64,000 nucleotides of DNA from IMG/VR virus record IMGVR_UViG_3300045988_124082. One strand, 5' to 3'. The stretch comes from a virus. A program made the position numbers and the translations under genes. Numbering within the stretch: position 1 is the stretch's first letter; each line of letters opens with the position of its first letter. The notes below the pieces were generated by a model. It ran no database searches. It worked only from the letters and a program-made list of their open reading frames with translations, and had not been told where the DNA came from. Shown here piece by piece: positions 9,682 to 30,289 of the stretch.

Positions 9682-9691
9682 GAGTGGTTAT

Positions 9692-11266: not shown

Positions 11267-11280
11267 AGAGAGGTGTAAGG

Positions 11281-11598: not shown

Positions 11599-11608
11599 GG
11601 TGGTGTAA

Positions 11609-11869: not shown

Positions 11870-11891
11870 TTGATAGTAGAAAGGACATATT

Positions 11892-13025: not shown

Positions 13026-13141
13026 GTATTAAAATTTTAGGACTTCGTCAAGATTGCTACAAAGTAATCATTGATGGAGTCCTTTTTAAATTCCCAACAG
13101 AACAAGAGTTTTTGGAATTCTTAGAGGAGATTGAGATATGA
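13022..13141 (+). CDS. Unlisted 39-aa ORF MSIKILGLRQDCYKVIIDGVLFKFPTEQEFLEFLEEIEI
   Basis: Below the track size cutoff. ATGA overlaps at both ends (13022-13025 and 13138-13141), which indicates translational coupling. Confidence 0.5.
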   Translation: MSIKILGLRQDCYKVIIDGVLFKFPTEQEFLEFLEEIEI

Positions 13142-13416
13142 GTTTTAGATTTGAAGTAGGTCAAGAGCTGGAATTACACAATAACTTGACGGATATGAAA
13201 GTTTACATGAGATCGGGAACGGTTGTTCGTATCTTAAGTAGAAAAACAAGAATGGATCATACACAAGGGGTTGAGAGAAATCGTTACAAGATTGCATATG
13301 AATTTCATACAAGCTTTTTGGAGATTGGAGATGGTTGTTACCACTGTGGAAAAGACTTTATCTGGGAAGAAGATTTAATTAGAGCTGTCGGTCAACGGAA
13401 GAATAATTATTATTAA
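13138..13416 (+). CDS. NNYY-tail small protein (family IV-like); tail QRKNNYY
   Basis: ORF coupled to the upstream small ORF. Confidence 0.75.
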   Translation: MSFRFEVGQELELHNNLTDMKVYMRSGTVVRILSRKTRMDHTQGVERNRYKIAYEFHTSFLEIGDGCYHCGKDFIWEEDLIRAVGQRKNNYY

Positions 13417-13428
13417 GAGGTGATTAAA

Positions 13429-13698
13429 ATGTGGAAAGTCGGAGATAGAGTCGTAATTATTCAAGATGCTAGAAGAAATTTAGAATCCTTTGTAGGTTTC
13501 AAGGGAACGGTTAACTTTGCAAGTAGAGATGAGATAAGTGTAGTTTTTGACAAATATGTAAACGGTCATGACTTACTAGGGGATTGTAAAAAAGGTTATG
13601 GATGGTTTTTGTCCTCAGACGGAGAGAACGAAAACGAAGCCGAAGCAAATGGAATGAGAGTCAAGAAAATTAACAACAGAAAAAATAATTATTGGTAG
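13429..13698 (+). CDS. NNYY-tail small protein (family I); tail NRKNNYW
   Basis: MWKVGDRVVII...GTV...VVFDKYVNGHD; RBS AAGAGGTGA. Confidence 0.75.
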   Translation: MWKVGDRVVIIQDARRNLESFVGFKGTVNFASRDEISVVFDKYVNGHDLLGDCKKGYGWFLSSDGENENEAEANGMRVKKINNRKNNYW

Positions 13699-13707
13699 GT
13701 GATAGGA

Positions 13708-13980
13708 ATGTGGGAAAAAGGTACAAGAGTTAGAATTATAAAATCAAACAGACTTATGACGCAAGTTGGTATCATGGGCACTGTGGTTTACATACATAAG
13801 GATGGAAATGATCGTTTTATAGTAGAGTTTGACGAACCTATGGATGGGAATTATATGACTACTTTTTGTGATTGCAAACCGAAGTGTTGGTGGTGGTTTG
13901 ATAATGTTCCGGGGAGAGTTGTTGAAACAGATGGTATAACAATTGAAAAAATAGGAAAAAGAAAAAACAATTATTACTAA
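13708..13980 (+). CDS. NNYY-tail small protein (family I); tail KRKNNYY
   Basis: MWEKGTRVRII...GTVVY...VEFDEPMDG...CWWWF. Confidence 0.75.
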   Translation: MWEKGTRVRIIKSNRLMTQVGIMGTVVYIHKDGNDRFIVEFDEPMDGNYMTTFCDCKPKCWWWFDNVPGRVVETDGITIEKIGKRKNNYY

Positions 13981-13992
13981 GGCGGTGAGAAC

Positions 13993-14340
13993 ATGTGGGA
14001 AATTGGAGATAGAGTGGCTGTTACAGACTTAGGCAAAGTCTCTCAAGAGAATTATGGAATTGAAATAAAGATTGGATACAAGGGAACTATTATCAACTTT
14101 TTAAAGATTGATGTCCCATGGAATTCTGATGAGATAATTAAATTCTTAGTAGAGTTTGACGAACCCATGGATGGACATGATGGAAATGATTTCGGTAAAA
14201 TAAGTGGGAAATCGGGACACTGTTGGTGGATGCGTGGAAACCAAGATAGTAATTTAATCAAATGGCGAGATAGCCGGGATTGTGAAGCACCATTAATATG
14301 TAAGAAAATCATGAAGAAAAGGAAAAACAATTTTTACTAA
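13993..14340 (+). CDS. NNYY-tail small protein (family I); tail KRKNNFY
   Basis: MWEIGDRVAV...VEFDEPMDGHDG...GHCWWM. Confidence 0.75.
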   Translation: MWEIGDRVAVTDLGKVSQENYGIEIKIGYKGTIINFLKIDVPWNSDEIIKFLVEFDEPMDGHDGNDFGKISGKSGHCWWMRGNQDSNLIKWRDSRDCEAPLICKKIMKKRKNNFY

Positions 14341-15147: not shown

Positions 15148-15513
15148 ATGAAAGTAGTAATCGCAGAAAACAGATTAGAGGTAGTAACAGGAATCAAAAA
15201 GGCAGACTTCGACAAACAGGTAACAGACATGACTGTTAAAGATGACAAAGGAAATGTGACATTTAAGTTAAAAGTTGGAGAACAGCCTAACATTTCAGTA
15301 CTTGGTTTAACTTGCAACACAACTGTTGACAAAGAGTTAGCGGTAACAATGATTCTTCCAATGGAAACAGATGTTGAAGAAATCAAAATCAAGTATGGTA
15401 AGGCTTTAGTAGCAGCTGAAAAGAATCTGAAAGTAATTGCTGACAGAATCGTAGCAGATACAGAAGCAGTTGATGGAATCTTTGCAGACACAGAAGAAGC
15501 AACAGAAGCCTAG
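15148..15513 (+). CDS. Small protein A1 (121 aa), paralog of 16018..16362
   Basis: Strong RBS AAAAGGAGAAAC. Conserved LGLTCN(T/S)T(V/I)DK motif. Confidence 0.75.
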   Translation: MKVVIAENRLEVVTGIKKADFDKQVTDMTVKDDKGNVTFKLKVGEQPNISVLGLTCNTTVDKELAVTMILPMETDVEEIKIKYGKALVAAEKNLKVIADRIVADTEAVDGIFADTEEATEA

Positions 15514-15569
15514 GAACAGCCTTGAGTAAAGGTAAAACAATATAATCTAATATTAATTCATTCACTTAT

Positions 15570-15597
15570 AGGACGTCTCCCAAGGGCGTCCTTTTTA
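15570..15597 (+). terminator. Rho-independent terminator
   Basis: AGGACG-tctcccaagg-CGTCCT followed by T5. Confidence 0.7.
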
Positions 15598-15641
15598 GTT
15601 ACACATTTACATATTCAGGAGATTAAAAGGAGAACAAAATT

Positions 15642-15881
15642 ATGATGATCAATGTAACATTAGCAACAACAGCAGGTAAAAGTCTTGTAACAGTAGAAGG
15701 AAACCAGACTCCATCACAAGTACTTGAAGAGAACAGCGTAGCAACAACAGGAGCTACTGTATCACTCAATATGAGACCACTTGCAGATAATGAAAAAGGT
15801 AAAACTTTTGAAGAATTAGGATGCACAGATGGTGATTCCGTAATGTTATCAGCAGTTGTAAAAGCAGACTCAGCAATGTAG
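15642..15881 (+). CDS. Small protein B1 (79 aa), ThiS/MoaD/ubiquitin-like beta-grasp candidate
   Basis: The pattern V-TL....VTVEG..TPSQVLEE......GATVSLN.....L..LGCTDGDSVMLSAVVKA resembles sulfur-carrier/Ubl proteins. There is no C-terminal GG (it ends KADSAM). Confidence 0.7.
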   Translation: MMINVTLATTAGKSLVTVEGNQTPSQVLEENSVATTGATVSLNMRPLADNEKGKTFEELGCTDGDSVMLSAVVKADSAM

Positions 15882-16017
15882 TAGTAAATCAAATTAGATA
15901 GTAAATATTGAAAATCATAACGCCATGGGAAGTAATAAATTAGATGGGACAGGATGATTTGAGATTTTACATATAAAGAAACTTAAAAAAATCAATGAAT
16001 TAAAAAGGAGAACAAAC

Positions 16018-16362
16018 ATGAAAGTATCATTAAAAGAAAACGCATTAGAAATCAACACAGAAATCAAAAAAGCTGACTTTGACAAGAAAGTAAGCAACAT
16101 GACAGTAACAAACAAAGATGGTGTACCAACATTTGTTTTACGCTGTGGAAGAGAGGGAGAAATTTCTCAGTTAGGACTTACATGTAACTCTACAATTGAC
16201 AAGAACTTAGCTGTAACAATTGTGTTGCCTCCAGAAACAAAAATGGAAGACATCAAAGTTGAATATGGTAAAGCCCTTGTAAATGCAGAAAAGGGATTAA
16301 AAGTCCTTGCTGGGAGAATTGAAGCCGATACGAAAGCTATTGATGCGATTTTTGCGGAATAG
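16018..16362 (+). CDS. Small protein A2 (114 aa), paralog of A1
   Basis: RBS AAAAGGAGAACAAAC; aligns along its whole length with A1. Confidence 0.75.
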   Translation: MKVSLKENALEINTEIKKADFDKKVSNMTVTNKDGVPTFVLRCGREGEISQLGLTCNSTIDKNLAVTIVLPPETKMEDIKVEYGKALVNAEKGLKVLAGRIEADTKAIDAIFAE

Positions 16363-16467
16363 AAAGTAAAATAATATCTAATGTAATTTCACAACAAACA
16401 GGGACAGTCAACCCAATAAGTCCTACGAGTAACTGTTAACCAAGCAAAATATTTTCTCTTTCGACTC

Positions 16468-16510
16468 AAAAGCTTTGCAGGTAGGGGTTGGACAGCAAAG
16501 CTTTTGTTTT
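16468..16510 (+). terminator. Rho-independent terminator
   Basis: AAAAGCTTTGC...GCAAAGCTTTT followed by a T run. Confidence 0.75.
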
Positions 16511-16559
16511 AGTAACTATAGAACACAAGTATTAAAAGGATATAAAGGAGAACAAAATT

Positions 16560-16799
16560 ATGATGATCAATGTAACATTAGCAACAACAGCAGGTAAAAG
16601 TCTTGTAACAGTAGAAGGAAACCAGACTCCAAGTGAAGTGTTAGCTGAAAATAATGTAGCAACAACAGGAGCTACAATCTCTATGAATATGAGACCATTA
16701 AGTGTAGCTGAATTAACTGATACATTTGAAGAGCTTGGATGTAATGATGGTGATTCTATCATGTTATCAGCTGTAGTTAAAGCCGATTCTGCTTTCTAG
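16560..16799 (+). CDS. Small protein B2 (79 aa), paralog of B1 (beta-grasp candidate)
   Basis: The first 24 codons plus the RBS are 100 percent identical at nucleotide level to B1; the remainder has diverged. Ends KADSAF. Confidence 0.7.
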   Translation: MMINVTLATTAGKSLVTVEGNQTPSEVLAENNVATTGATISMNMRPLSVAELTDTFEELGCNDGDSIMLSAVVKADSAF

Positions 16800-16827
16800 T
16801 TCTAGCAGGTAAAGAGAGAAGAACATG

Positions 16828-16864
16828 AAGAGCGTAGGTGTCATAGCCTACGTTCTTATTTTTT
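16828..16864 (+). terminator. Rho-independent terminator
   Basis: AAGAGCGTAGG...CCTACGTTCTT followed by a T run. Confidence 0.7.
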
Positions 16865-16901
16865 ACTTATTAATTATATTCATAAGAAAGGAAAATACAT
16901 T

Positions 16902-18626
16902 ATGGAAGAAAGAAAATTTAAAACAAATGACTACGTGGTAGTAAAGAATTGGGATGAATTGGTTGAAGAATATGGATTGGTTGATCCCGAATCTGTTAGA
17001 GAACAGATGAGGAATGATGAGGATTGTTATTGGTCAGAAGAAGAGATTAATGAATACAATCCAGAAATCATTAATGTTCCATGGGGAGCAAGAAAAGCAA
17101 TGATTGATGAACTTGTAACTATGGGATTGATGAAGGTCAAAGAATATGGAGAAGATGGAAGTGTCCAGCTGGAAAGCGATACTTACATTGACAGTATTAT
17201 CCCAGAAGAGATTTTACAGCCTGTAAGCGAAGATGAGGTTAAGAATTATATCTTTTGGCTTAATAAAAAAGATGATGATTTTGTAATGCAGGACTACGAT
17301 TTTGCTCAAGCAAATGGATTATTAACTTATGTAGGATTGGTCAATGGAAGTATTGATTTTATCGGAGGAAACAAAGGTAATGAATTAATTGCTTATTTCT
17401 ATGCAGCATCAATTTTAAGATCAATTGATTTTAATGAGGGAGTTACAGAATATCTAAGCCATTGTCATGAAGTTAGTGTTCATACATTTGACCATTTTTA
17501 CACTGACAGAAAATCACATTTGCAGATTGTAGCGATAAAAGATGTTTCTGAGGATGGAGAAGAAGAACTTGTTAATATGTGGACAGAAAGAGGCTGGGAA
17601 GAAGTTGAATTCCACAACGATAAAGTTTTTAAGGTGTTTACTCATCCTGAGCAGAAAGGAACCACAATTTTCTTAAATGGAGAAAAAGAAGATTATAAAA
17701 AAGACTTTGAAGCTTATGAACTGATCATGCAGATTGTTAGCCATGTTTATGGAGATACAATGCAGGATGTTTTAGAAGTTGTTAGCAATAGAGATAGATC
17801 AGAAGCTATGAATATGATCCGTGATATTTTCTCAGAAGCGGATAAGCAGTATGTGAAAATCAAAAACAAAATTAATATTGAAAACTTCCTAAAGGTTGCA
17901 TCTAAAGGTCAGCAGAAACATTTAGAACGAGAAGTTCAGAATAATCAGGACAGAGTTAATAGCTATAAAGATAATCTCAGACACTCTCTTAAAACATTAA
18001 GAGAGTCACAAGAAAGACTCTTCGGATATTTACATATGAAAGATGATTCCCAGTTCAATGAAGTAAGAGAAATGTTAAACATGATGGGTGATGATTTAAG
18101 TGATTTTAGGTGTAATCCTAGCGGTGATTGGTTTAGCTTTGCAATCGTTCAGCCATTGTTATATTGGGATGATGATATTTACGAAAGAAACTTTGATGAT
18201 GAATACTTTGAAGAAGAGGCTGAATATGAAAAGACGAAAAAAGTATTCGACAAAATCTTTAAGACAAGAGAATACACTTTGTATCTACAGCAAGCAATAA
18301 TGATTGACTTGGTCAATAATAAACCAGTTGCAATGAGAGATTATAATTATACAAATGATATGTATATTCCTAATCCACATTTCCATGAGTTTAACTGTTG
18401 GGGAGCAAATGAAGCAAATTTAATTGAAGCGATTTCAAACAGAGATTATATGTCAATTTTCAATCTTGTTAGATCAGCTGTCGCTGGAATTTCTTTATAT
18501 GATACTTCTGTAGTAGGAGCTTTCTTTAATTATTGTGAAGACAGATTTACAAATAAAAAATGTCTTAAAGTTCCAGGAAGAGAAGAATTTATTTCATTCA
18601 AAGAAGCAAGAGCATTGGAGGATTAA
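16902..18626 (+). CDS. Large hypothetical protein (574 aa); possible E2-like Cys segment near the C-terminus (speculative)
   Basis: ORF plus RBS. Followed 3 nt later by the JAB gene. C-terminal IPNPHFHEFNCWG loosely recalls the E2 HPN...C motif. Confidence 0.7.
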   Translation: MEERKFKTNDYVVVKNWDELVEEYGLVDPESVREQMRNDEDCYWSEEEINEYNPEIINVPWGARKAMIDELVTMGLMKVKEYGEDGSVQLESDTYIDSIIPEEILQPVSEDEVKNYIFWLNKKDDDFVMQDYDFAQANGLLTYVGLVNGSIDFIGGNKGNELIAYFYAASILRSIDFNEGVTEYLSHCHEVSVHTFDHFYTDRKSHLQIVAIKDVSEDGEEELVNMWTERGWEEVEFHNDKVFKVFTHPEQKGTTIFLNGEKEDYKKDFEAYELIMQIVSHVYGDTMQDVLEVVSNRDRSEAMNMIRDIFSEADKQYVKIKNKINIENFLKVASKGQQKHLEREVQNNQDRVNSYKDNLRHSLKTLRESQERLFGYLHMKDDSQFNEVREMLNMMGDDLSDFRCNPSGDWFSFAIVQPLLYWDDDIYERNFDDEYFEEEAEYEKTKKVFDKIFKTREYTLYLQQAIMIDLVNNKPVAMRDYNYTNDMYIPNPHFHEFNCWGANEANLIEAISNRDYMSIFNLVRSAVAGISLYDTSVVGAFFNYCEDRFTNKKCLKVPGREEFISFKEARALED

Positions 18627-18629
18627 AAA

Positions 18630-19595
18630 ATGAGAAAAATTAGAATTGAAGAATTAGATGCACAGAGATTAGTACAAGAAGTGATAGCGAAAGCTATCAC
18701 TTCTATTGGTTTAACCCCAGAAAAATTACAGATGGAAATTAATCCTAATGTAAAACTTAAAGAAGAAGAGAAAATTGAGATTGCTTTTTCAGAAATGGCA
18801 GAAAAGAAAATGTATTATCTCATTCACGAATGTGAAAAAGAAATTGGTTGGCATGGACTTGTCAGTCGAAGCGAAAATGGATTCTATGTAGAAGACATTA
18901 TTGTATTCCCACAGGAAGTTACAGGAGCTACTGTAACATCAGATGATGAGCTATATCCAACTTGGATGCTTAGTCAGCCAGATGAGATTTACAATAAGAT
19001 TAGATTTCATGGACATTCACATGTAAATATGGCAACAAGTCCAAGTGGTGTAGATGATACGTATCAGGAGCAGATTATTCAACAGTTTATGTCTAGTCCA
19101 CTTGATGAAAATAATTTTTACATATTCGGCATTTTCAACAAAAAGGGAAGCTATTGGTTAAATATTTATGACATTTATAACAATAAATTTTATGAGACAG
19201 ATGATATTAGTTATGTTTTTTATCAGTCAGATGAACAGGCATGGGCTAAAGAACAGATTAAAGAGAATGTAAAAGAAGAAGTAGCTGTAAAAACAAGTGG
19301 ATATTATTCTAATGGATATGGTTATAGAGGCGGTGGATACGGAACAGAAGAGCTGTATGATACTTGGAAAAAGAACTATGATAAAAACAAAGGCAAAGAG
19401 AAGCCAAAAAAAGATGAAGCAGAGTTGCGAAAAGAATTAAGTGGAGCAATTATTGCAGATTTAACACCTCCAAAATGGCATAGTAAATGGAGTAAATGTT
19501 TACAGAGGATGATTAGCTGTGATGAAAGTCTTGATGATTTAATTGAAGAGTATTGTATTACTTATCCAGATTATAGTGGAACAAAAAAGAAATAG
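18630..19595 (+). CDS. JAB/MPN+ (JAMM) metallopeptidase domain protein
   Basis: Complete JAMM signature: E in HECEKEIGWHG, then HGHSHVNMATSPSGVDD, which fits H-x-H-x7-S-x2-D. Confidence 0.8.
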   Translation: MRKIRIEELDAQRLVQEVIAKAITSIGLTPEKLQMEINPNVKLKEEEKIEIAFSEMAEKKMYYLIHECEKEIGWHGLVSRSENGFYVEDIIVFPQEVTGATVTSDDELYPTWMLSQPDEIYNKIRFHGHSHVNMATSPSGVDDTYQEQIIQQFMSSPLDENNFYIFGIFNKKGSYWLNIYDIYNNKFYETDDISYVFYQSDEQAWAKEQIKENVKEEVAVKTSGYYSNGYGYRGGGYGTEELYDTWKKNYDKNKGKEKPKKDEAELRKELSGAIIADLTPPKWHSKWSKCLQRMISCDESLDDLIEEYCITYPDYSGTKKK

Positions 19596-19607
19596 AGGAG
19601 GATGATT

Positions 19608-20285
19608 ATGAATACAAGTAAAGTTTTAGAATTTTTTGATGCACAGACATTAGTTAAAAAACCAGTTCATGTAATTGGATGTGGAGCAATTGGCTCAAAT
19701 GTCGCAGAACAGCTTACAAGATTAGGAGTCTCAGTGATTCATCTCTGGGATTACGATCATGTTGAGCCTAAAAATGTAACTAATCAGATGTTCTTTGATG
19801 GGGATATCGGAAAAGCTAAGGTAGATGCAATTGAAAATTTGTGTAAGTCAATTAATCCACAGATTAAAATAATCAAACATGAAAGAGGGATTGATGATCC
19901 ATATATTCTTACAGGATATGTATTCTTATGTGTAGATAATATTGAGCTTAGAAAGAAAATCGTAGAGGCCAATAAGTTAAATCCAAACTGTATTGCGTTC
20001 TTTGATTTTAGAATGAGACTTACAGATGCACAGCATTATTTTGCTGATTGTTCAGTTAAAGAACAGGTTGAAAACTTAATTGGAACCATGAATTTTACCC
20101 ATGAAGAAGCGGCTGCAGCAACTCCTACAAGTGCTTGTGGAGTGGAATTAAGTGTATGCTATACAGTTAAGAATATTGTTTGTTATGGAATTGCAAATTT
20201 TGTTAACTTTTGCCTAGGGAATGAACCAAAACAGATGATTATTACAGATATGAAGACAATGGATGTGACAGTATTCCCTATGTAA
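19608..20285 (+). CDS. ThiF/MoeB/E1-like adenylyltransferase
   Basis: VHVIGCGAIGSNVAEQLTRLGV..IHLWDYDHVEPKNVTNQ: a Rossmann GxGxxG followed by the D-x-D-x-V-E-x-x-N motif. ATG 19608 is preferred over 19602 on RBS spacing. Confidence 0.8.
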   Translation: MNTSKVLEFFDAQTLVKKPVHVIGCGAIGSNVAEQLTRLGVSVIHLWDYDHVEPKNVTNQMFFDGDIGKAKVDAIENLCKSINPQIKIIKHERGIDDPYILTGYVFLCVDNIELRKKIVEANKLNPNCIAFFDFRMRLTDAQHYFADCSVKEQVENLIGTMNFTHEEAAAATPTSACGVELSVCYTVKNIVCYGIANFVNFCLGNEPKQMIITDMKTMDVTVFPM

Positions 20286-20291
20286 GAGGTG

Positions 20292-20567
20292 ATGATCTTG
20301 ATAGAAGAAAAATATAAAGCGGTACCTAAAAATTATAAGGGGATTGTAAGACTTAAGCCAACAATAGCACGTTTCCGCCCTTATTACCATGCGTATGTTA
20401 AGTTGGAGGAGGGCTATCACTATACGGGTAATCCAGATCACACAGTATACGTTGAGTTGTACAAGACTTATCAAGATTTAACAAACAATGGTAGGTGTAT
20501 AAGGGAAGGCCTTATAGAAGAAAGAAGCTTATATGTTCCAAGAGAACGTAAGAATAATTATTGGTAG
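20292..20567 (+). CDS. NNYY-tail small protein (family III, VPKxYKG); tail ERKNNYW
   Basis: Starts 4-7 nt after the E1 stop; the start codon is ambiguous (GTG 20289, ATG 20292 or TTG 20298). KAVPKNYKGIVRL...GNPDHTVYV. Confidence 0.7.
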   Translation: MILIEEKYKAVPKNYKGIVRLKPTIARFRPYYHAYVKLEEGYHYTGNPDHTVYVELYKTYQDLTNNGRCIREGLIEERSLYVPRERKNNYW

Positions 20568-20575
20568 GTGAGAAT

Positions 20576-20848
20576 ATGTGGGAAAAAGGTACAAGAGTTA
20601 AGATAATAGGGGGAGCAAAAATCGGCTTAATGGGGACAGTGGTTGTTAAGTGCACAGAAACCCCTGTCAATGACATTAGAGATCGCTTCTTAGTAGAGTT
20701 TGACGAATCCATGGGTGGACATAGTGGAAATGGAGCTTATGAAGGAAAGCGGGGACATTGTTGGTGGTTTGATTATTGTTTAGAAAAGGTTACTATCACA
20801 GATGGCATAAGCATTGAGCAAGTCAAAAGGAAAAATAATTTTTACTAG
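20576..20848 (+). CDS. NNYY-tail small protein (family I); tail KRKNNFY
   Basis: MWEKGTRVKII...VEFDESMGGHSG...GHCWWF. Confidence 0.75.
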   Translation: MWEKGTRVKIIGGAKIGLMGTVVVKCTETPVNDIRDRFLVEFDESMGGHSGNGAYEGKRGHCWWFDYCLEKVTITDGISIEQVKRKNNFY

Positions 20849-20861
20849 GGGGGGTGATTAG

Positions 20862-21077
20862 ATGTGGGAAGTTGGTGACAGAGTAGTAGTTAGTAGTGCA
20901 TTTAGGCCTAAAGTGAAAGGGACAGTCATTGCTATAGATGCGGAATCTACAATGCCTGTATTGGTTAAAATAGGTGGAATAGGAACAGGTATGTGGTTCT
21001 ATGAAAATGGTGATGATTTAGTTTGGAGTGACATTACTTGCACACGAGTGAAAAAGAGGAAAAACAATTATTATTGA
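20862..21077 (+). CDS. NNYY-tail small protein (family I, short); tail KRKNNYY
   Basis: MWEVGDRVVV...GTVIAID. Confidence 0.75.
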   Translation: MWEVGDRVVVSSAFRPKVKGTVIAIDAESTMPVLVKIGGIGTGMWFYENGDDLVWSDITCTRVKKRKNNYY

Positions 21078-21093
21078 GAAAGGATGATGACAG

Positions 21094-21381
21094 GTGTTTA
21101 AGGTTGGAGATAGGATCGTACTAACAGAAGAAAGCCGTCAAAGCTGCAATATATTTCATGAACATCCGGGAGATACTGCAACGGTTATTGGAGTTTCGAA
21201 AGTATCAAGTAGGTCTGATTATGAATGTGTTTTAGAATTTGATAGACATATTGGTGGACATGATGGGTTAACCGATGCCACAGGCAAGAACGGTCATTGT
21301 GTTATCTATTATTTTGATTCAACACAGTGGGATAAGTATTTTAGGAAAATCCAAAGTAAACGTAAGAATAATTATTATTAA
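21094..21381 (+). CDS. NNYY-tail small protein (family I); tail KRKNNYY
   Basis: GTG start; FKVGDRIVL...LEFDRHIGGHDG...GHCVIYY. Confidence 0.75.
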   Translation: MFKVGDRIVLTEESRQSCNIFHEHPGDTATVIGVSKVSSRSDYECVLEFDRHIGGHDGLTDATGKNGHCVIYYFDSTQWDKYFRKIQSKRKNNYY

Positions 21382-21396
21382 GAAAGAGGTGATCGT

Positions 21397-21713
21397 ATGC
21401 CAGAGGATGTAAAGTACCGTCCAGTTCCTAAAGGGTATACAGGTGTTTTTAGGCTAAGAGAAGATACGACGTCCTTAGCCAATGAGTTTTATGGAGCATG
21501 GGGCATTATAGACGACAAATTTTTAATCGATGAAGATTATTATAATGAAGAAAATGAATTTAAGGGAGATCCCGATCATGTAATTCGAGTAAGTTTTTAT
21601 CCTAGCCTTTTAGATCTGCAAAGAGGTGAAATCTTATTAGAGAAGTAGGAAGAGTGTCTGGGACAGAAAAGTATTGTTATATTCCTTTCAAAAGAAAAAA
21701 TAATTACTATTAA
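21397..21713 (+). pseudogene. Frameshifted family III NNYY-tail gene (or recoding site)
   Basis: Frame 0 stops at 21646-21648. Frame +2 continues ...EVGRVSGTEKYCYIPFKRKNNYY-stop (21711-21713) and aligns with its paralogs. The shift window is about 21628-21648. Confidence 0.6.
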
Positions 21714-21728
21714 GAAAGAGGTAATCAA

Positions 21729-22043
21729 ATGGAAAATAATGGTATATATCCTCCAGTACCTAAGGGATACAAGGGTGTTTTTAGAGTTAGACCTGATATG
21801 ATAGGATCAGATAATATGTTCTATGAAGCATATGGTATTACAGGAAAAGGTATTATAGAAGACATTGATTATTTAGAAGGCCAAGGAGAATTTACAGGAA
21901 ATCCACATCATATAATTAAAGCCATTTTTTATCAAACCTATGAAGACTTAAAGAACAGAGAATGTATGATACAAGGAAGGCCTGTTAAAATAAAAGAACA
22001 CTTACTTTACCCCGTGTCAAACAAGAAGAACAATTACTGGTAG
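21729..22043 (+). CDS. NNYY-tail small protein (family III); tail NKKNNYW
   Basis: YPPVPKGYKGVFRV...GNPHHIIKA. Confidence 0.75.
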   Translation: MENNGIYPPVPKGYKGVFRVRPDMIGSDNMFYEAYGITGKGIIEDIDYLEGQGEFTGNPHHIIKAIFYQTYEDLKNRECMIQGRPVKIKEHLLYPVSNKKNNYW

Positions 22044-22053
22044 GTGATTTAAG

Positions 22054-22323
22054 ATGATAGACGCAAAAGATATTAAAGAGGGTATGAAAATTAAGTATAA
22101 TGGTTGGGAATGGACTATAACAAAAGTGTTTGCAAAATATAATAATGTCTTGGATCTTCGGAATGATTGTATTAAAAAAATCATTGATCAAGATAGTTCA
22201 TTGATTTGGATTGAAGCATCGAAGAGACGCTTTGTGCCTGAATCTATGACTATGGAGTGGTTCTTTAAAGAACTGAAATATGGAACAATAAAGATTTTAA
22301 ATCGTAAAAATAATTATTATTGA
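22054..22323 (+). CDS. NNYY-tail small protein (family IV); tail NRKNNYY
   Basis: ORF plus RBS TAGGTGA. Confidence 0.75.
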   Translation: MIDAKDIKEGMKIKYNGWEWTITKVFAKYNNVLDLRNDCIKKIIDQDSSLIWIEASKRRFVPESMTMEWFFKELKYGTIKILNRKNNYY

Positions 22324-22332
22324 GGTGATGTG

Positions 22333-22623
22333 ATGTATTTAGAAGACATTAAAGTTGGTCAGAAAGTGAACTATCGAGGTCATTCCTACATAATAACTAA
22401 AAATGTTGTAAAGTATCGGGGAATAATTAGACCTTATTATTCTACATATTCGTATATCAAGGAAAGTACAAATTGTCATAGATCACGAATGTATTTTCGA
22501 AGAGTAGAAAATAAAAATGAACCGATTGATGGATTTTGGTTATTATATGACGAGATTGAAGAAAAAATGGATCGAGGGCTTATTAAATTTTTGAACATGT
22601 CAAAGAAAAATAATTATTATTAA
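22333..22623 (+). CDS. NNYY-tail small protein (family IV); tail SKKNNYY
   Basis: ATG 5 nt after GAGGTG. Confidence 0.75.
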   Translation: MYLEDIKVGQKVNYRGHSYIITKNVVKYRGIIRPYYSTYSYIKESTNCHRSRMYFRRVENKNEPIDGFWLLYDEIEEKMDRGLIKFLNMSKKNNYY

Positions 22624-22638
22624 AGGGGGTGCCACAAA

Positions 22639-23940
22639 GTGAATGGAATCAATAAAAGGAAATTAGAACTGTTTATGGATGATCAGCTATGGAGACAAAA
22701 TATTACACATCAGCAAAGCAAAGGTGTACATAGAGATGTATTAAGAATTGTGTGTGATCCAGAATACAAAGCACGGCTTTTAGGAATGATCTGGGATGGT
22801 AATTACAAAATTGCACCTCCGTATGTAGTAGAAATTCCTAAAGACAATGGAAAAGTAAGAGAAGTGTATGTTAATCAGCCAATTGACAGATTTGTTATGA
22901 CACAAATCAATTATGTTTATATGCAATTATATGGTCATATGATTCATCCAAGATGTGTGTCTTATCAGAAAGGAATTGGAGTTAAAAATATCGTAGATGA
23001 TATTTGTATGGAGCTTAAGAAACATCAAGGAGCTGTCGGGTATAAGGTAGACATTAGTAAGTATTTTGACAGTGTAAGCCGTGAGGTCCTTAATGAAATG
23101 ATTGATAAAATTGATACAGGAAGTCCTATTGATCAGATCGTAAGAGATTATTATATGGATGATTGTATCATTGATCAGAAAGGAAATGTTATTGAGAAAT
23201 ACAAAAGTATGACTCAGGGTTGTGCAGTGTCTACATTCTTTGCCAATTGTGTTTTAAAAGATGTTGATGAAGAGTTAAGCAAGATGGATATTATTTATTA
23301 CAGATATTCAGATGATATCTTGATGGTTGGTAAGGATGCAGATAAGGCTTTGAAGATGTTGGGAGAAATGTTAGAAACGAAAGGACTTACATTAAATCCT
23401 AAAAAGGTAGAAACAGTCAGTACAGATCAATGGTTTACATTCTTAGGAGTGCGAATTAATGGACAGAAAAGAAGTTTTTCTGAGAAGAGCTTAAAGGAAT
23501 TTCAGAAACATATTAGAGAATATGTAAATAAGAAAGCAGGAATTGGTAGCGTAAAAGTTGCAATCAGACAAATTAATAAATATCTGTATTTGAATTTCTT
23601 AAGGAATCCTAATGAGTTTGGTTGGGCTGAGTATTTCTTTAGTATTGTGAATGTCGAAGATGATATTAAGACATTAGATATGTGGATTAAAGATACACTC
23701 AGAGGTTTGTATACTGGTAAGAGAGGAAAAGAACAGATAGGTGGACTAGGTGTAAATAAAGTAACTAATGAATGTGGAGTATTAAGAGGGAAGGGCAACA
23801 AAGTAAGTTCAAATTTACGTAAAACAAGAAGTGATAAAGACATTTTAGAAGAAGCAGGATATATCAGTATGAATGAAATGTATCATCAGTTTAGATATAG
23901 CAAAGAATTGTACAGGGCTTCATTGACGGCTTTATCTTAA
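22639..23940 (+). CDS. Reverse transcriptase (free-standing, group-II-intron-like RT with a thumb/X-like C-terminus)
   Basis: RT motifs in order: IPKDNGKVREV (1), DRFVMTQI (2), YKVDISKYFDSV (3), TQGCAVSTFFANCVL (4), YYRYSDDILMVG (5, YxDD), KGLTLNPKKVE (6), FTFLGVRI (7). GTG start behind AAAGGGGGTG, 15 nt after the last NNYY gene. Confidence 0.85.
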   Translation: MNGINKRKLELFMDDQLWRQNITHQQSKGVHRDVLRIVCDPEYKARLLGMIWDGNYKIAPPYVVEIPKDNGKVREVYVNQPIDRFVMTQINYVYMQLYGHMIHPRCVSYQKGIGVKNIVDDICMELKKHQGAVGYKVDISKYFDSVSREVLNEMIDKIDTGSPIDQIVRDYYMDDCIIDQKGNVIEKYKSMTQGCAVSTFFANCVLKDVDEELSKMDIIYYRYSDDILMVGKDADKALKMLGEMLETKGLTLNPKKVETVSTDQWFTFLGVRINGQKRSFSEKSLKEFQKHIREYVNKKAGIGSVKVAIRQINKYLYLNFLRNPNEFGWAEYFFSIVNVEDDIKTLDMWIKDTLRGLYTGKRGKEQIGGLGVNKVTNECGVLRGKGNKVSSNLRKTRSDKDILEEAGYISMNEMYHQFRYSKELYRASLTALS

Positions 23941-23987
23941 GTGTAACCTAACACGAGGTACTTATGTGAAATGTTATAAGTCAAATC

Positions 23988-24075
23988 AGATCCCTAGGAT
24001 ACACGGGTGATTCCATGCATGGTTGATAACCAGCATTCCATCAACCCGTTCCTCCCTGGATCTTATCATCATAAA
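23988..24075 (+). repeat. Hairpin-box unit 1: imperfect ~76-nt hairpin plus ATCATAAA box (24068-24075)
   Basis: AGATCC..AGGA..ACGGGT...ACCCGT.TCCT..GGATCT, then TATC-ATCATAAA. Confidence 0.55.
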
Positions 24076-24160
24076 GGAAATTTAGAAACGTGTTATTAAC
24101 ATGAACATAAGAAAGTTACTATGGACGTTGTATGTGAGACAATGGAATTACATATAAGGC

Positions 24161-24235
24161 GCGTTGAAGCTGCAGGATGACTGGCAATACATTGACCAAG
24201 TCATCCCTGCAGCTCAACCGCTTTATAATCATAAA
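24161..24235 (+). repeat. Hairpin-box unit 2: ~61-nt hairpin plus ATCATAAA box (24228-24235)
   Basis: GCGgTTGAAGCTGCAGGATGACT-loop-AGTCATCCcTGCAGCTCAAcCGC with bulges, then TTTATA-ATCATAAA. Confidence 0.6.
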
Positions 24236-24318
24236 AGAATAAAGGAACATAGCATGATTGTGAGCATACAAACAAGCTAACATGGGCTAAACATACGAGA
24301 CGTTGAATCATACATAAT

Positions 24319-24422
24319 AAGGGCACAGCTGCCTTATGCAGCGGGAAATTAGTCTCCTCGACAATAATTTCACCGCTGCCACAGGCGTGCGTGCCCTTAT
24401 TAATCATAAACCAATAGAGAAA
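24319..24422 (+). repeat. Hairpin-box unit 3: ~80-nt three-segment hairpin plus a 20-nt box ATCATAAACCAATAGAGAAA
   Basis: AAGGGCAC/GTGCCCTT, GCAGCGG/CCGCTGC and GAAATTA/TAATTTC stems. The box at 24403-24422 is identical to 26662-26681. Confidence 0.6.
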
Positions 24423-24459
24423 ACATGTCGCCAATGTAGAGTATGTAGAAAGGAAAATC

Positions 24460-24996
24460 ATGAAAAGTTTATTTAAAGTATTGTATGAGCTGTCACAAGG
24501 AAACACCTTAATGATTAATAGTTGCATGTCTTTTAGAATGACAACTGATCTATACAAAAGACAAGTGAGATTTAAGAAGTATAAGGTTGTTGATCAAGGA
24601 AGCGTAGTAAGTGATGTGACATTGTGTAGTGGAGAGGTTATTGAGTATGATGACTTAATAAAGGAAGGAGATTTAGATTTTATATTACCAATTGAATTAA
24701 ACGAAAAAGAAAATCCATATGAGGTTATTGAATACCTGTATGGATTATTTTATTGTTCAGTTCCTGATAGATCTGCTGTTCAAAAGAAACAGAATTTTAT
24801 AGCAAAAGGATTAAATGATTTTGGGGCAAATGATTTTACAGGAATGAGAAGAAGTGAAATTCAGCCATTGTTAGAACTCTATGTGTTACTCGCTGGAATG
24901 AAAGGATGGATCACTTGGAAAGATGATAAGTTGTTCTTTTGGAAAGGTGAGCATAAGAGTTTGTATATATATAGAAAATGGATTTTAGGTTATTAG
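24460..24996 (+). CDS. Hypothetical protein (178 aa)
   Basis: ORF with RBS GAAAGGAAAATC. First gene after hairpin cluster 1. Confidence 0.65.
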   Translation: MKSLFKVLYELSQGNTLMINSCMSFRMTTDLYKRQVRFKKYKVVDQGSVVSDVTLCSGEVIEYDDLIKEGDLDFILPIELNEKENPYEVIEYLYGLFYCSVPDRSAVQKKQNFIAKGLNDFGANDFTGMRRSEIQPLLELYVLLAGMKGWITWKDDKLFFWKGEHKSLYIYRKWILGY

Positions 24997-25013
24997 GAAA
25001 GGAAGAACGTAAA

Positions 25014-25775
25014 ATGAATGTAGAAAAGAGTTTGGAAAAAGCAGGAGTAGACACAAAGAAATATCCTTCATTAGCTATGCAGAATATTTTAGGATATCAA
25101 GGGAAAGCGTTTGCAGAAAATTCATACCTGTATAGAAAGATCATGGGAGATGGGCATGTGTTTAATCCTTATATACACAGAAGATGGCTTCCATATCAGT
25201 TTATGAATGCTGTCCATTGGACAAGACAGTATTATGCAGAGACTATTGGTTATGTAAAGATGCTTGAAAAAGAATTGATGCGTGGCAATAATGTAGATAA
25301 TTGGAAATATATGTACGATAAATTTGGAAAAGAGCTTAATGCTTTATATACACTCTCAAAAAGAGATAAAAAAGCGTATAAAGAAAGATGGGCTGCTTTT
25401 GGAAGATTAGAAATTTTGAAATATTTCTCTCAAGGGTTTGATTGTGTAGGGATAAATCAAAATACATTTTTGGAAATGAAAAATTTATTAGCGGATGAAA
25501 GATTTGAAGCTGAACGATATTGGCGATATCCTAATTGTTTATTGTATAAACGGCCACAATTTAGAAAAGATTTGGTAACAACAACTTTCCATTCAGGAAT
25601 TTATTTTACATTAAAACATATTATGATGTTTGATTATGAAAAATTACATATGTCTTCATCCCAAAAAGAAAGCCTAAAACGGATTAGAGAAGATTTAATT
25701 AACGGAGATTTCAATTATGAGCAGGCTTTTACAATTATTGAAGATTACGTAGCAAGATATTACAATCCAAGATAG
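25014..25775 (+). CDS. Hypothetical protein (253 aa)
   Basis: Internal ATG behind AGGAAAGGAAG is preferred over 24978, which overlaps the previous gene. Confidence 0.6.
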   Translation: MNVEKSLEKAGVDTKKYPSLAMQNILGYQGKAFAENSYLYRKIMGDGHVFNPYIHRRWLPYQFMNAVHWTRQYYAETIGYVKMLEKELMRGNNVDNWKYMYDKFGKELNALYTLSKRDKKAYKERWAAFGRLEILKYFSQGFDCVGINQNTFLEMKNLLADERFEAERYWRYPNCLLYKRPQFRKDLVTTTFHSGIYFTLKHIMMFDYEKLHMSSSQKESLKRIREDLINGDFNYEQAFTIIEDYVARYYNPR

Positions 25776-25788
25776 AGAGGGGAATTAT

Positions 25789-26286
25789 ATGCCAGAAGAA
25801 GTAAAAGAATTAACTATTAAAGAAGCAGATGAGTTTATTAAAAAGAAAGTAATCGGAGTTCTCATAAAAGCAGATGTAACAATCATAGTAAATGAATTAG
25901 AAGCTATTTATGGAGATTCGTTAGCAAATGGAACGGTTGGAGATTCGTTTTATATTTATAACTGTCCAGAAAATTATGATGAATCAGATTATGAAGAGCT
26001 TGAGTATATTGATTATGATGATATGTATGAAGATGATATTCGTGAAGAGAGAGCTGAAGCAGGAGATTTTAATCTTAAAGTATATAAGTGGTTCATTGTT
26101 GATCCAAGATTTACAGAATTATTAAAAGATTTGGGCGAGATAGTTGCTCCAGATATTAACCTTTGGGGATGTTGTGAAGACATTGAAGACGCAAGCGAAG
26201 CAACTGTAATTGAAGAATTTTTTGAAAGAATGCAGATTCTGTATGGACAAAAGAATGCAATTATTACAGAAAAGCTGAGTGCTTAA
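25789..26286 (+). CDS. Highly acidic hypothetical protein (possible DNA mimic; speculative)
   Basis: ORF plus RBS GAGAGGGGAA. Contains the stretch ENYDESDYEELEYIDYDDMYEDDIREERAEAGD. Confidence 0.65.
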   Translation: MPEEVKELTIKEADEFIKKKVIGVLIKADVTIIVNELEAIYGDSLANGTVGDSFYIYNCPENYDESDYEELEYIDYDDMYEDDIREERAEAGDFNLKVYKWFIVDPRFTELLKDLGEIVAPDINLWGCCEDIEDASEATVIEEFFERMQILYGQKNAIITEKLSA

Positions 26287-26290
26287 ACCA

Positions 26291-26332
26291 ACAAAAGGGA
26301 GATGTACCCTTTGTAGAAATACTTATCATAAA
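26291..26332 (+). repeat. Hairpin-box unit 4a: short hairpin plus ATCATAAA box (26325-26332)
   Basis: ACAAAAGGG-agatgta-CCCTTTGT, then agaaatactt-ATCATAAA. Confidence 0.5.
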
Positions 26333-26337
26333 CCATC

Positions 26338-26454
26338 GAAGAAGGAGGATCTTCAGAACCCTCCGCATTGATTACGTTAAACATCACTTCGTAATGATTT
26401 AACAGCATCAACTGCGAGAGGAGTTCATGAAGATCCTCCTTCTTGAATCATAAA
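26338..26454 (+). repeat. Hairpin-box unit 4b: ~108-nt hairpin plus ATCATAAA box (26447-26454)
   Basis: The 16-bp basal stem pairs GAAGAAGGAGGATCTT with AAGATCCTCCTTCTT. An inner stem pairs ATTACG with CGTAAT. Confidence 0.6.
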
Positions 26455-26550
26455 TACATAGAGGAATACATCAAAGATAAGTTGTTCTACATTTTTTGCA
26501 AGAGATATACTTGCTGATTTAATGAATTGTGTTTGAATCACTCACATAAT

Positions 26551-26681
26551 CGGGAGAAAGGAGGCATAATCTCATCTCCTCCACTGGCAAGCCAGGGAGG
26601 ACTTGATGAGATTACATTCCGCTGCGGCGTCATTGTGCCTCCATTCTCCTGATCATGTTTGATCATAAACCAATAGAGAAA
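26551..26681 (+). repeat. Hairpin-box unit 5: ~99-nt hairpin plus the 20-nt box ATCATAAACCAATAGAGAAA
   Basis: Stems GGGAGAA.GGAGGCA/TGCCTCC.TTCTCC, AATCTCATC/GATGAGATT and CCTCC/GGAGG. Box at 26662-26681. Confidence 0.6.
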
Positions 26682-26742
26682 TATATCACCTCACAATGAG
26701 TTAAATCTGTAACTATTAATTTACATAGAAAAGGAGAAACAG

Positions 26743-27312
26743 ATGAAAGCGATTTTTAAAGGAGAAAAAGTTGTAAGAACTAAATTAACATTAGACACTG
26801 GACTTGAAAGACTGGAAGGATCGGATGTTAGCTATTTTGTGAGACGACCTAAGCTGACACATGAAGTAAGTGAAGAAAAGGGTGGAATCATTTTAGAAAA
26901 GGATCTTTCTTTTAATAAAATCTTACTCTTAAAAGATGCTAATGAAGTGACAGTTGATGAATTTACATTTGTATTATCAGGCATTATTGATTACAACTTA
27001 GATGAAGAATGTGTAGTTTTTTACACAGACGCTTGTTGTTCAATTGAAGATACAGATGGGCAGAACAAAATCGAAGCCTATCATAAACTTTTGGATGCAT
27101 ATGAAAAGCAGGTAGGAACGAAAGAAAGTCAAGAGGAAGAATGCGATTGTGCTTACTGTAATGGAGATTACGTTTGTGCTTTTTGTAGAGATGATGATGA
27201 ATCAGAATTAGATGATGAAGAGGACATCGGAAAGAAAGCAATGGATAATCTAGAAGATCTAAATAAAATTCTTGCAGAGTTCTTCGGGGATATTCCGGGA
27301 TTCAAGTGTTAG
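26743..27312 (+). CDS. Hypothetical acidic Cys-rich protein
   Basis: RBS AAAAGGAGAAAC; CDCAYCNGDYVCAFC. Confidence 0.65.
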   Translation: MKAIFKGEKVVRTKLTLDTGLERLEGSDVSYFVRRPKLTHEVSEEKGGIILEKDLSFNKILLLKDANEVTVDEFTFVLSGIIDYNLDEECVVFYTDACCSIEDTDGQNKIEAYHKLLDAYEKQVGTKESQEEECDCAYCNGDYVCAFCRDDDESELDDEEDIGKKAMDNLEDLNKILAEFFGDIPGFKC

Positions 27313-27328
27313 TTAAAGATTGATATTG

Positions 27329-27359
27329 AGAGAGACACTTCGTATGAGGTGTCTCTTTT
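27329..27359 (+). terminator. Rho-independent terminator
   Basis: AGAGACACT-tcgtatga-GGTGTCTCT followed by T4. Confidence 0.7.
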
Positions 27360-27397
27360 AGTATATAGATTTTTTAGAAAGGAGATGAAAAAGGAAA

Positions 27398-28192
27398 ATG
27401 GCAACAGAGTTTGACAAACGAATGAAAGCTTATGAATGTGTCTCAAGACAGTACTTAACAAGAAGAGTACCAGTTGCAATTAGGGTAGATGGAAAGGCAT
27501 TTCATACATTCACTAGAGGGTTTCAGAAACCATTTGATGAAGTGCTTAGCAACACAATGCAAGCCACAATGATGAAAATGTGTAGACAGATTCAGGGTTG
27601 TGTGTTTGCTTACACACAGAGTGATGAAATTACATTTATTCTTATCGATTATCAGAAGCTAAATTCTGATGGCTGGTTTAACTACCGTACTGATAAGATG
27701 TGTAGCATTGCAGCGAGTATGGCTACTATGGAGTTCAATAAGGCTTTTAGTGCTTTTGTTTATGGATTTAAGGTAAACAAGGGAGAAGACATATCAAGCG
27801 AAGATATGGAAGTGCTTAAGGCCTATGAGAAATCTAAGGAACGTGGAGCTATGTTTGATGCTAGAGCGTTCTCAATTCCAAAAGAAGAAGTCACAAACTT
27901 AATCTATTGGAGACAACAGGATGCTATGAGAAATGCAGTTCAGATGGTTGGACAAGCATTTTATTCTCACAAAGAACTTCAGGGTGTTAATTGTGAAATG
28001 CTTAAAGAAATGTTACTGGCTGATAAGGGAATTGAATGGGATAAGATTCCTGTGAAATACCAGAGAGGCAGTTGTTGTGTCAAGGTTGATGGTGAATGGA
28101 CTATTGACAATAACATTTCTATCTTCAGAGGTAGTGACAGAGAGCAAATTGATAAGCTTGTGTTTGTTGAGAGTGAAGAGGATCAGGAGTGA
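27398..28192 (+). CDS. Thg1-like protein (tRNA-His guanylyltransferase family, 3'-5' nucleotidyltransferase)
   Basis: FDKRMKAYE...RRVPVAIRVDGKAFHTFTRGFQKPFDE...VFAYTQSDEITFIL matches the Thg1/TLP N-terminal catalytic core pattern. Confidence 0.75.
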   Translation: MATEFDKRMKAYECVSRQYLTRRVPVAIRVDGKAFHTFTRGFQKPFDEVLSNTMQATMMKMCRQIQGCVFAYTQSDEITFILIDYQKLNSDGWFNYRTDKMCSIAASMATMEFNKAFSAFVYGFKVNKGEDISSEDMEVLKAYEKSKERGAMFDARAFSIPKEEVTNLIYWRQQDAMRNAVQMVGQAFYSHKELQGVNCEMLKEMLLADKGIEWDKIPVKYQRGSCCVKVDGEWTIDNNISIFRGSDREQIDKLVFVESEEDQE

Positions 28193-30139: not shown

Positions 30140-30289
30140 GGGGACATAGCTTAATAGGTAAAGCAAAACTACATTCTTCCATAAAGAACTTAAAACTAAA
30201 ATTTTCATATTAAATATAAACATTTTGTACCTCCCTATTGTAATAAAATAACACTTATATTTATGTGGGTTCGAATCCCACTGTCCCCA
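30140..30289 (+). tRNA. tRNA-like gene with an aberrant ~95-nt AT-rich middle; anticodon not assignable
   Basis: 7-bp acceptor stem GGGGACA/TGTCCCC. D arm GCTT-AATAGGTA-AAGC (30149-30164). T arm GTGGG-TTCGAAT-CCCAC (30265-30281). Discriminator A, no encoded CCA. I could not fold a 5-bp anticodon stem in 30166-30259. Confidence 0.45.

Follow-up and report, generated by a model that had tools for sequence, protein, structure and literature searches.

A conserved pairing of a candidate ubiquitin-like cassette with reverse transcriptases and non-coding RNA arrays in gut phages

Introduction

Why would a phage keep, in one tightly packed run of genes, a JAB/JAMM-type peptidase, a ThiF/E1-like adenylyltransferase, a battery of small proteins ending in a common C-terminal peptide, and a reverse transcriptase (RT) followed by a series of RNA hairpins? 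The question is raised by positions 16902-26742 of a 64,000-nt stretch of DNA from the IMG/VR virus record IMGVR_UViG_3300045988_124082, the whole of which is here called the window. An earlier note, made from the letters and their open reading frames (ORFs), took the block for a candidate composite system of a kind not yet described. Following it up computationally, we read the locus as three modules that would lie side by side: a ubiquitin-like (Ubl) cassette (15148-20285), a UG27 retroelement (22639-26742) and two batteries of small proteins. The explanation that we prefer, with some reserve, is that the cassette and UG27 work in one pathway, and that the batteries are a lineage-specific addition. 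The window itself is phage-like, with about 34% G+C and nearly all of its genes on the plus strand, and near-identical IMG/VR contigs reach 131-134 kb; positions 16902-26742 and their flanks are probably the early region of a phage of about 130 kb, whose host is probably among the gut Clostridia. A search of a phage database with the window DNA gave no near-DNA match.

UG27 is a group of phage-borne RTs, described from viruses of the human gut, that come with two proteins and a predicted non-coding RNA (ncRNA) (Mestre et al., 2022, bioRxiv 10.1101/2021.12.02.470933). According to the 'Minerva' preprint of September 2026 (10.64898/2026.09.22.753630), UG27 loci bear variable arrays of about 135-167-nt units, synthesis of complementary DNA (cDNA) needs the RT and both accessory proteins, reverse transcription begins at the AUC of AUCNNNNNNNUANAG, and the products are single-stranded DNA (ssDNA) hairpins of 50-100 nt; RT-dependent ssDNA from central hairpins is reported there for five other UG27 systems. 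The published definition comprises three proteins, active in Escherichia coli with these alone, and no cassette. These retroelements are common in human-gut phages, and the same preprint states that their biological role is unknown.

Results

The JAB and ThiF genes of the window are members of a longer cassette, E-C-F-JAB-ThiF, in which E and C occur twice (Table 1). The features that the earlier note put together are real, but it cut the cassette in half, overlooking the E and C genes, each present twice, at 15148-16799. We gathered 80 IMG/VR loci with a JAB profile and labelled their ORFs with phmmer and hmmsearch; the viral set had 91 sources in total. The order E-C-F-JAB-ThiF-RT is found in 67 of these, and in 11 more, all of the window lineage, with E-C doubled; the other 13 comprise truncated loci, fusions of C with E, and variants with rearrangements or duplications. 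Across the viral set E has about 115-150 aa, C about 75-80 aa and F about 430-730 aa, and the E family, found in 86 of the 91 sources, lies 5' of C and F. The phage database contains a single relative, MT835544.1, and its gene order is the same (141 aa, 78 aa, 491 aa, JAB, ThiF, RT). Searches of Pfam, NCBIfam, PHROGs and PADLOC assigned nothing useful to E, C, F or the small proteins, save for one SH3_12 match. The cassette appears to be a new phage-encoded Ubl/E1/JAB system with two new protein families, E and F.

Past ThiF there is nearly always an RT. In the viral set this holds for 89 of the 89 loci that reach past ThiF. In an independent set, obtained by a scan of GTDB genomes in which the cassette was found mostly in metagenome-assembled genomes (MAGs) of Clostridia, it holds for 26 of the 30 MAG loci with enough sequence 3' of ThiF. 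Of the genes for which the earlier note had proposed a synteny search (RT, JAB, ThiF and the NNYY-tail genes), the first three therefore show a strongly conserved linkage. Two kinds of RT fill the slot in the viral loci: UG27 in 13 (the window, L002-L012 and L014) and a mutually related retron-like family in 76. One locus, L124, has a second RT (347 aa) at 4469, 5' of the E gene, besides the one after ThiF.

The two enzymes of the cassette are what the earlier note had called them. JAB has no Pfam match, although E71, H129-S-H131, S139 and D142 are invariant across 40-56 homologues and fit the E...HxH-x7-S-xx-D zinc site; its AlphaFold2 (AF2) model (predicted local distance difference test, pLDDT, 79.8) has an MPN fold for which Foldseek returned Rpn11 (E 1.2e-8), as well as CSN5, an archaeal Rpn11-ubiquitin complex and BubCD. 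ThiF matches PF00899 (E 1e-21) and conserves the motifs GCGxxGS, D-x-D, NQMF and CVD, and with them its Rossmann-type ATP site and catalytic Asp. A further cysteine, in the motif TPxSACG, is at least 90% conserved and is probably the one that carries the modifier as a thioester.

We consider it likely that the substrate of these enzymes is C, a candidate ubiquitin-like modifier. It is the expected substrate because the cassette contains this dedicated beta-grasp-like protein, because its ...K-x-D-x-A end is invariant and because of its fusions to the E domain. In a search of the PDB with a profile of C, nine of the ten best matches were Ubls (among them the ubiquilin UBL, ThiS, SAMP2, PF1061 and ubiquitin), all of them weak, at E 0.05-1.2. 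Near the C-terminus K74 is invariant and conservation reaches at least 90% at D76 and A78, and in the viral set the protein ends in ...VKAD[N/S]A followed by 0-3 variable residues, as would be typical of a beta-grasp modifier. At three loci (L045, 5941-6582; L061, 6462-7082; L075, 6776-7393) C is fused directly ahead of an E domain (...VVKADNA, then E), a layout that inverts the usual E-then-C order and resembles a ubiquitin fusion precursor.

F evolves fastest of the cassette proteins (13-19% identity between lineages), and its only invariant residues are H493 and C499, in PNPH-x5-C-x-G. Two of three large protein searches gave only six close homologues of F, even from a 43-sequence profile; with so few, the AF2 model is poor (pLDDT 55.6) and Foldseek uninformative, and neither Foldseek nor Pfam gave a match for F, the PDB profile search returning coiled-coil noise only. 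E2 enzymes have a UBC fold with an HPN...Cys site, and F has H493 and C499 in NPH-x5-C; a transfer (E2-like) or ligase function is possible. E has no invariant residue and no match in Pfam or in the PDB, where its profile likewise drew coiled-coil noise.

The RT of the window matches the PADLOC RT_UG27 profile with 546 bits (E 1.3e-164), residues 5-431 aligning with profile positions 2-419 of 420, and it also carries RVT_1 (Pfam, E 6e-21), in keeping with its earlier identification as an RT. We assign the RT and its array to UG27 with high confidence. The RT had been described as free-standing, which it is not: the two ORFs at 24460-25775 accompany the RT in all 13 UG27-type loci and, judged from sequence, are probably the two UG27 accessory proteins (sORF and bORF). 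The 178-aa ORF is homologous (E 1e-8) to gp80 of the cultured Bacteroides phage BS-TP1, which sits after the array of that phage; the 265-aa ORF has no Pfam domain. The RT of BS-TP1 is 38% identical to that of the window, and the unannotated 1.35 kb behind it holds eight ATC-N7-TANAG units with a period of about 165 nt, followed by the homologue of the 178-aa ORF. In the BS-TP1 record (PQ571274.1, our locus L136) this RT is gp79, in the region 9986-12598, where it is annotated as 'tail protein'.

The array of the window has six ATCATAAA boxes inside 2.7 kb (24068, 24228, 24403, 26325, 26447 and 26662); over the whole window the count is 17, against 8.9 expected. Five of the six boxes are preceded by long hairpins (z -2.9 to -9.7), that of unit 4 being short (z -1.4), so that the six hairpin-plus-box elements of the earlier note are confirmed, one of them as a weak case. 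The form ATC-N9-TANAG is found in units 2, 3, 5 and 6 and an N9-type box in unit 1, and the same box stands at orthologous places in L011, L012 and L014. The proposal that the RT uses the hairpin RNAs has held up well, since the enzyme is of UG27 type and published UG27 RTs copy the central hairpins of array units into ssDNA. The RT and the two accessory proteins would reverse-transcribe the central hairpins of the roughly six ncRNA units, yielding short ssDNA hairpins; such cDNA synthesis has been shown by others for the UG27 family, and for the units of the window it is predicted. This half of the locus is real but already described as UG27, and the claim that no such system was known therefore stands for the other part: we found no paper on a link of the RT to a Ubl cassette, nor any linking ThiF, JAB or ubiquitin with UG27, retrons or RTs.

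Other identities for the RT were tried and rejected. As a group II intron RT it scores 124 bits against a cut-off of 300, and Rfam detected no intron RNA at the gathering threshold or at E <= 1. With the retron St85 model it reaches 71.6 bits (cut-off 235), and model R1 is unmatched in the window. A diversity-generating retroelement would be expected to show a template-repeat/variable-repeat-like pair, and none was found; the repeats present are short stretches shared by paralogues, and tail codons that vary synonymously.

In the 76 viral loci of the second kind, retron RT models give the best scores for the RT after ThiF, which is adjoined by an ORF-free stretch of about 300 nt. The units there consist of an a1 repeat, G, two hairpins, GTAACAAnTTGA, about 200 variable nt, TAGAT and an a2 repeat. 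The a1/a2 pairs are 8-13 nt long and covary from unit to unit, one of the hairpins has compensatory changes in 8 of 8 pairs, and a locus holds one to eight units. By sequence this is the classical msr-msd layout, but arrayed. The conserved 5' motif of these loci could be taken for a promoter and leader, but given the covarying a2 partners a1 plus msr is the better explanation. Locus L086 (11316-16830) and also L019, L020, L025, L057 and L058 have up to eight retron-type units around a retron-like RT. We found no description of multi-unit retron arrays in the literature.

Does the neighbourhood of cassette and RT reflect a common function? An RT with an ncRNA array almost always comes next after the cassette, and for this reason the two likely belong to one pathway; a functional link between them seems to us somewhat more probable than its absence. 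Alternatively, cassette, RT system and battery could each be an early-region module in its own right, in an order inherited from a common ancestor. This is what one might conclude from the origin of all loci in gut or faecal phages of one broad group, inside which synteny could partly be common descent, and the tie between cassette and RT does rest on synteny. Four MAG loci (L099, L100, L118 and L120) have the cassette but no RT in the 6-7 kb after ThiF, and UG27 also occurs without the cassette, as in BS-TP1. Since its own three proteins also suffice for UG27 activity in E. coli, the tie is not obligatory for cDNA synthesis. Two further points weigh against the pathway that we propose: the beta-grasp call for C leans on weak profile matches, and F lacks a recognisable E2 fold and has a poor model. 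Nevertheless, two unrelated ssDNA-making RT types occupy the one slot, which inheritance by itself does not predict and which suggests selection on having an RT at this place, and the gene order persists down to about 30% identity in JAB and to the low identities seen in F, which speaks against mere inherited juxtaposition. We regard independent modules as unlikely. In the four loci without an RT, Bro-N, PD-(D/E)XK, RRXRR-HNH or LRR genes come after ThiF instead.

The small proteins raise a separate question. The earlier note counted ten genes with the NNYY tail; there are eight tail-ending ORFs between ThiF and the RT, one of them a fragment, and 12 more at 8709-14340, 20 in total. The fragment belongs to a tail gene at 21397-21713 that is split by a frameshift into an 83-aa ORF (21397-21648) and a 27-aa ORF (21630-21713, ...KRKNNYY), is a single 105-aa gene in L002-L010, and is here either a pseudogene or an assembly error. 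Among the genes of the upstream battery are a Bro-N-like gene (11892-13025, assigned through its orthologue in L011) and tail-less ORFs, for example at 10413-10808. That the proteins are otherwise unrelated is borne out: with the tails removed they fall into at least six families without detectable similarity. Some look SH3-like; tblastn of one tail protein against the phage database gave no match, and the N-terminus of F shows no similarity to the tail proteins.

The tail is conserved as protein. In the 20 ORFs the residue before the constant Lys is encoded by five Arg codons or by Lys, the Lys itself by AAA and AAG at 12:8, and the two Asn by AAC and AAT at 10:10 and 5:15; the final residues alternate between Tyr, Phe and Trp, and all three stop codons are used. 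Such varied codons mean that selection acts on the protein, and they rule out an element of the DNA or RNA. Among eight relatives from L002-L010 the tail genes have median identities of 72-94% and minima of 43-83%, with the tail fixed, whereas the cassette, RT and Thg1 genes of the same phages are 94-100% identical (medians 97-100%; cassette medians 98-100%). Other lineages have shared tails of their own: EC.C.SLL (L001, L031-L054), D[VI]..LL (L023 and L048, 15-24 genes per 20 kb), F.GV[ED][ED]LI(A) (L022) and [VI]SI..LI (L073). Each of these tails closes with a pair of bulky hydrophobic residues.

Does the E1-like enzyme adenylate, or JAB cleave, the KNN[YF][YW]-COOH tails, the battery proteins being modifiers or substrates, as the earlier note proposed? 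The tail lies at the extreme C-terminus and is conserved as protein, and tail genes are placed between ThiF and the RT, in L022 also between JAB and ThiF. Moreover, type II CBASS has an E1 whose substrate C-terminus can belong to a protein other than a Ubl. However, the Ubl-like C, with its small-residue end, is a core gene in nearly every locus, and ThiF is well conserved across lineages whose tails (NNYY, C.C.SLL, D...LL, EELI) are unrelated. Known E1 substrates end in Gly or Ala, and ends such as YY, YW or LL, with two bulky aromatic or aliphatic residues, are unlike any of them. Finally, our survey of batteries in the relatives, which covered up to 10 kb on either side of the cassette, revealed no shared-tail battery within that distance in many of the phages with the cassette; one of these is L014, which among relatives outside the lineage with the tails is the nearest of UG27 type. 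We therefore judge the proposal very improbable, and the constant tail as an E1 substrate is not supported.

Being missing near many cassettes, the battery is not a required part of them and is most likely a lineage-specific addition around the cassette. The constant tail would then most likely serve for docking or as a degron, directed at either a host factor or a cassette protein. One version of this has variable bodies bind host targets while the constant tail docks on F or the E1, so that the targets are tagged, in a manner comparable to the poxvirus ankyrin/PRANC proteins. In at least five lineages, with a different tail in each, batteries abut the cassette or are interleaved with it; a single tail is common to families without detectable similarity; the bodies are hypervariable next to near-constant cassette genes; and F, the would-be dock, is itself the fastest to change. 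Yet the docking is itself supposed, batteries are absent within 10 kb in many cassette phages, L014 included, and they could simply mark the early region. We hold that version to be distinctly unlikely, and, more broadly, it is doubtful that the tail proteins belong to the same machine as the cassette.

As to the transcription unit, the packing described for 16902-23940 is accurate: all genes are on the plus strand, with spacers of 3-16 nt or overlaps. Likewise, no terminator was found from 16857 to the array, the only convincing plus-strand sites nearby being 15570-15592, 16828-16857 and 27323-27364. The hairpins at 15570-15592 and 16828-16857, which follow the first E and the second C gene, may attenuate transcription and so lift the output of E and C over that of F, JAB and ThiF. 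Beyond the array lie a 189-aa ORF (26743-27312), only about 56% identical in six of eight relatives, and, just 3' of the UG27 block, a 264-aa ORF (27398-28192) whose L011 orthologue has PF04446 (Thg1, a tRNA-His guanylyltransferase-like 3'-5' polymerase). An Rfam tRNA match at 30140-30289 (43.7 bits) has model positions 1-71 stretched over 150 nt, and ARAGORN reported none; it may be a tRNA gene interrupted by an insert or intron of about 79 nt.

Table 1. Positions of the cassette, retroelement, battery and terminator-like features in the window
Feature	Position	Strand	Basis
Upstream battery, 12 genes, 86-145 aa, ending [KR]KNN[YF][YW]-stop	8709-14340	+	ORF tail scan
E protein copy 1, 121 aa, first cassette gene, C-terminal coiled-coil helix	15148-15513	+	Family synteny
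Terminator-like hairpin after E copy 1	15570-15592	+	Terminator scan
C protein copy 1, 79 aa, ubiquitin-like (beta-grasp) candidate, end ...VVKADSAM	15642-15881	+	Conservation, PDB profile
E protein copy 2, 114 aa	16018-16362	+	Family synteny
C protein copy 2, 79 aa, end ...VVKADSAF	16560-16799	+	Family synteny
Terminator-like hairpin after C copy 2	16828-16857	+	Terminator scan
F protein, 574 aa, central coiled coil	16902-18626	+	Family synteny
JAB/JAMM metallopeptidase, 321 aa, Rpn11/CSN5-like	18630-19595	+	Invariant residues, AF2 and Foldseek
Minimal ThiF/E1-like adenylyltransferase, 227 aa, conserved TPxSACG cysteine	19602-20285	+	PF00899
Second battery, 8 tail-ending ORFs, one a fragment of a frameshifted gene	20286-22623	+	ORF tail scan
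UG27 reverse transcriptase, 433 aa	22639-23940	+	PADLOC RT_UG27
UG27 ncRNA array units 1-3 (long hairpin, then ATC-N9-TANAG)	23941-24459	+	Box and hairpin scans
178-aa ORF, probably UG27 accessory	24460-24996	+	With 13 of 13 UG27-type RTs; homologue of BS-TP1 gp80
265-aa ORF, probably second UG27 accessory	24978-25775	+	With 13 of 13 UG27-type RTs
165-aa acidic ORF between the array halves	25789-26286	+	In 12 of 13 UG27-type loci
UG27 ncRNA array units 4-6, unit 4 short or degenerate	26287-26742	+	Box and hairpin scans

Discussion

From the family assignments, the synteny and the motifs observed here we infer a route of trimming, thioester relay and transfer to a target, as well as a coupling of this route to the RT. 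C would be made as a precursor, which the Rpn11-like JAB would trim after ...KAD[S/N]A; the same peptidase may also reverse conjugates. ThiF would adenylate the exposed alanine of C and then probably hold the modifier on its conserved cysteine. The modifier would next pass to a target, possibly by way of Cys499 of F as an intermediate carrier, and E is a possible partner or target of it.

A role for UG27 may be approached from this side, because a conserved neighbour whose type of chemistry is known (Ubl activation, trimming and conjugation) gives a lead to its function. What appears new is the pairing itself, kept in more than 100 related phages, near-constant and with RT-ncRNA arrays of two kinds. 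The cassette would be a phage-encoded ubiquitin-like system, whereas the bacterial systems characterised so far (CBASS Cap2/3, Bil, Bub) serve in host defence. The hypervariable batteries with constant tails, a clear arms-race signature, and the arrays of retron-type units in phages also appear to be new, and the latter extend the idea of ncRNA arrays past UG27. All parts might form one counter-host machine, in which the small proteins dock through their tails on an F/E1 complex and steer Ubl tagging to diverse host proteins, for example those of defence, or in which the Ubl is joined to the DNA hairpins made by the RT or to their protein partners. This is speculative and we think it improbable; if true, it would represent a viral effector system of a new kind and would give a function to UG27 and to phage retron cDNAs, and a Ubl joined to DNA hairpins or their partners would tie protein conjugation to reverse-transcribed DNA.

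Among known systems, the same gene order is seen in PRTRC of plasmids and integrative and conjugative elements (TIGR03734-03742), where an E-like protein, a C of about 70 aa and a large protein precede ThiF, again in a mobile-element setting. Is the cassette a diverged phage form of PRTRC (E-C-F-B-A-ThiF), sharing its function? Order and sizes agree with the true PRTRC locus L092 (E 173 aa, C 65 aa, a 447-aa protein, B, A, ThiF), and the window ThiF matches PRTRC_ThiF, albeit weakly (34 bits, far under the cut-off of 145). In contrast, the NCBIfam models PRTRC_A, B, C, E and F find no cassette protein at a threshold as loose as E <= 10, alignment of the phage profiles with the L092 proteins by hhalign gave nothing, and PRTRC has two proteins, B and A, in the place of the one JAB, besides a ParB and no RT. 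With no similarity of sequence or profile beyond the generic ThiF fold, homology to PRTRC is not supported, and we rate this descent as quite improbable. The sulfur-carrier pairs ThiS/ThiF, MoaD/MoeB and QbsE/QbsD also combine a small beta-grasp protein with a minimal E1 and sometimes with JAMM trimming of a C-terminal extension. Unlike them, the locus is a phage early region with an RT and no nearby genes for sulfur transfer or cofactors, and C does not end in Gly-Gly.

Type II CBASS (Cap2/Cap3), Bil and Bub share with the cassette an E1-like enzyme and a JAB peptidase working on a protein C-terminus, and the JAB model matches BubCD. The cassette differs from them in being phage-encoded and outside a defence island, in its minimal E1 without a fused E2, in having neither a CD-NTase nor a recognisable UBC-fold E2, in a candidate modifier that ends in Ala after K-x-D and not in Gly-Gly, and in the new families E and F. 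Type II CBASS as an identity for the locus was rejected, as there is no CD-NTase or effector among the ORFs and the 227-aa ThiF aligns with the Cap2 models of PADLOC over their E1 part only. With retrons, the 76 related viral loci share the a1/a2 inverted repeats, the msr-like hairpins and a variable msd-like part. They differ in that their units are arrayed, up to eight per locus, are phage-borne and adjoin no known retron effector, and the RT of the window is not of retron type. The closest counterpart of the RT half is UG27 itself, with which the window shares the full-length RT match, an AUC...UANAG hairpin array, two domain-less, probably accessory ORFs and a gut-phage setting. The start-motif spacer is N9 in the window and N7 in the published motif and in BS-TP1, that is, 2 nt longer, and three ORFs split the window array in two. 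Above all, this UG27 system lies directly 3' of a Ubl/JAB/E1 cassette, a neighbour that neither of the UG27 papers mentions.

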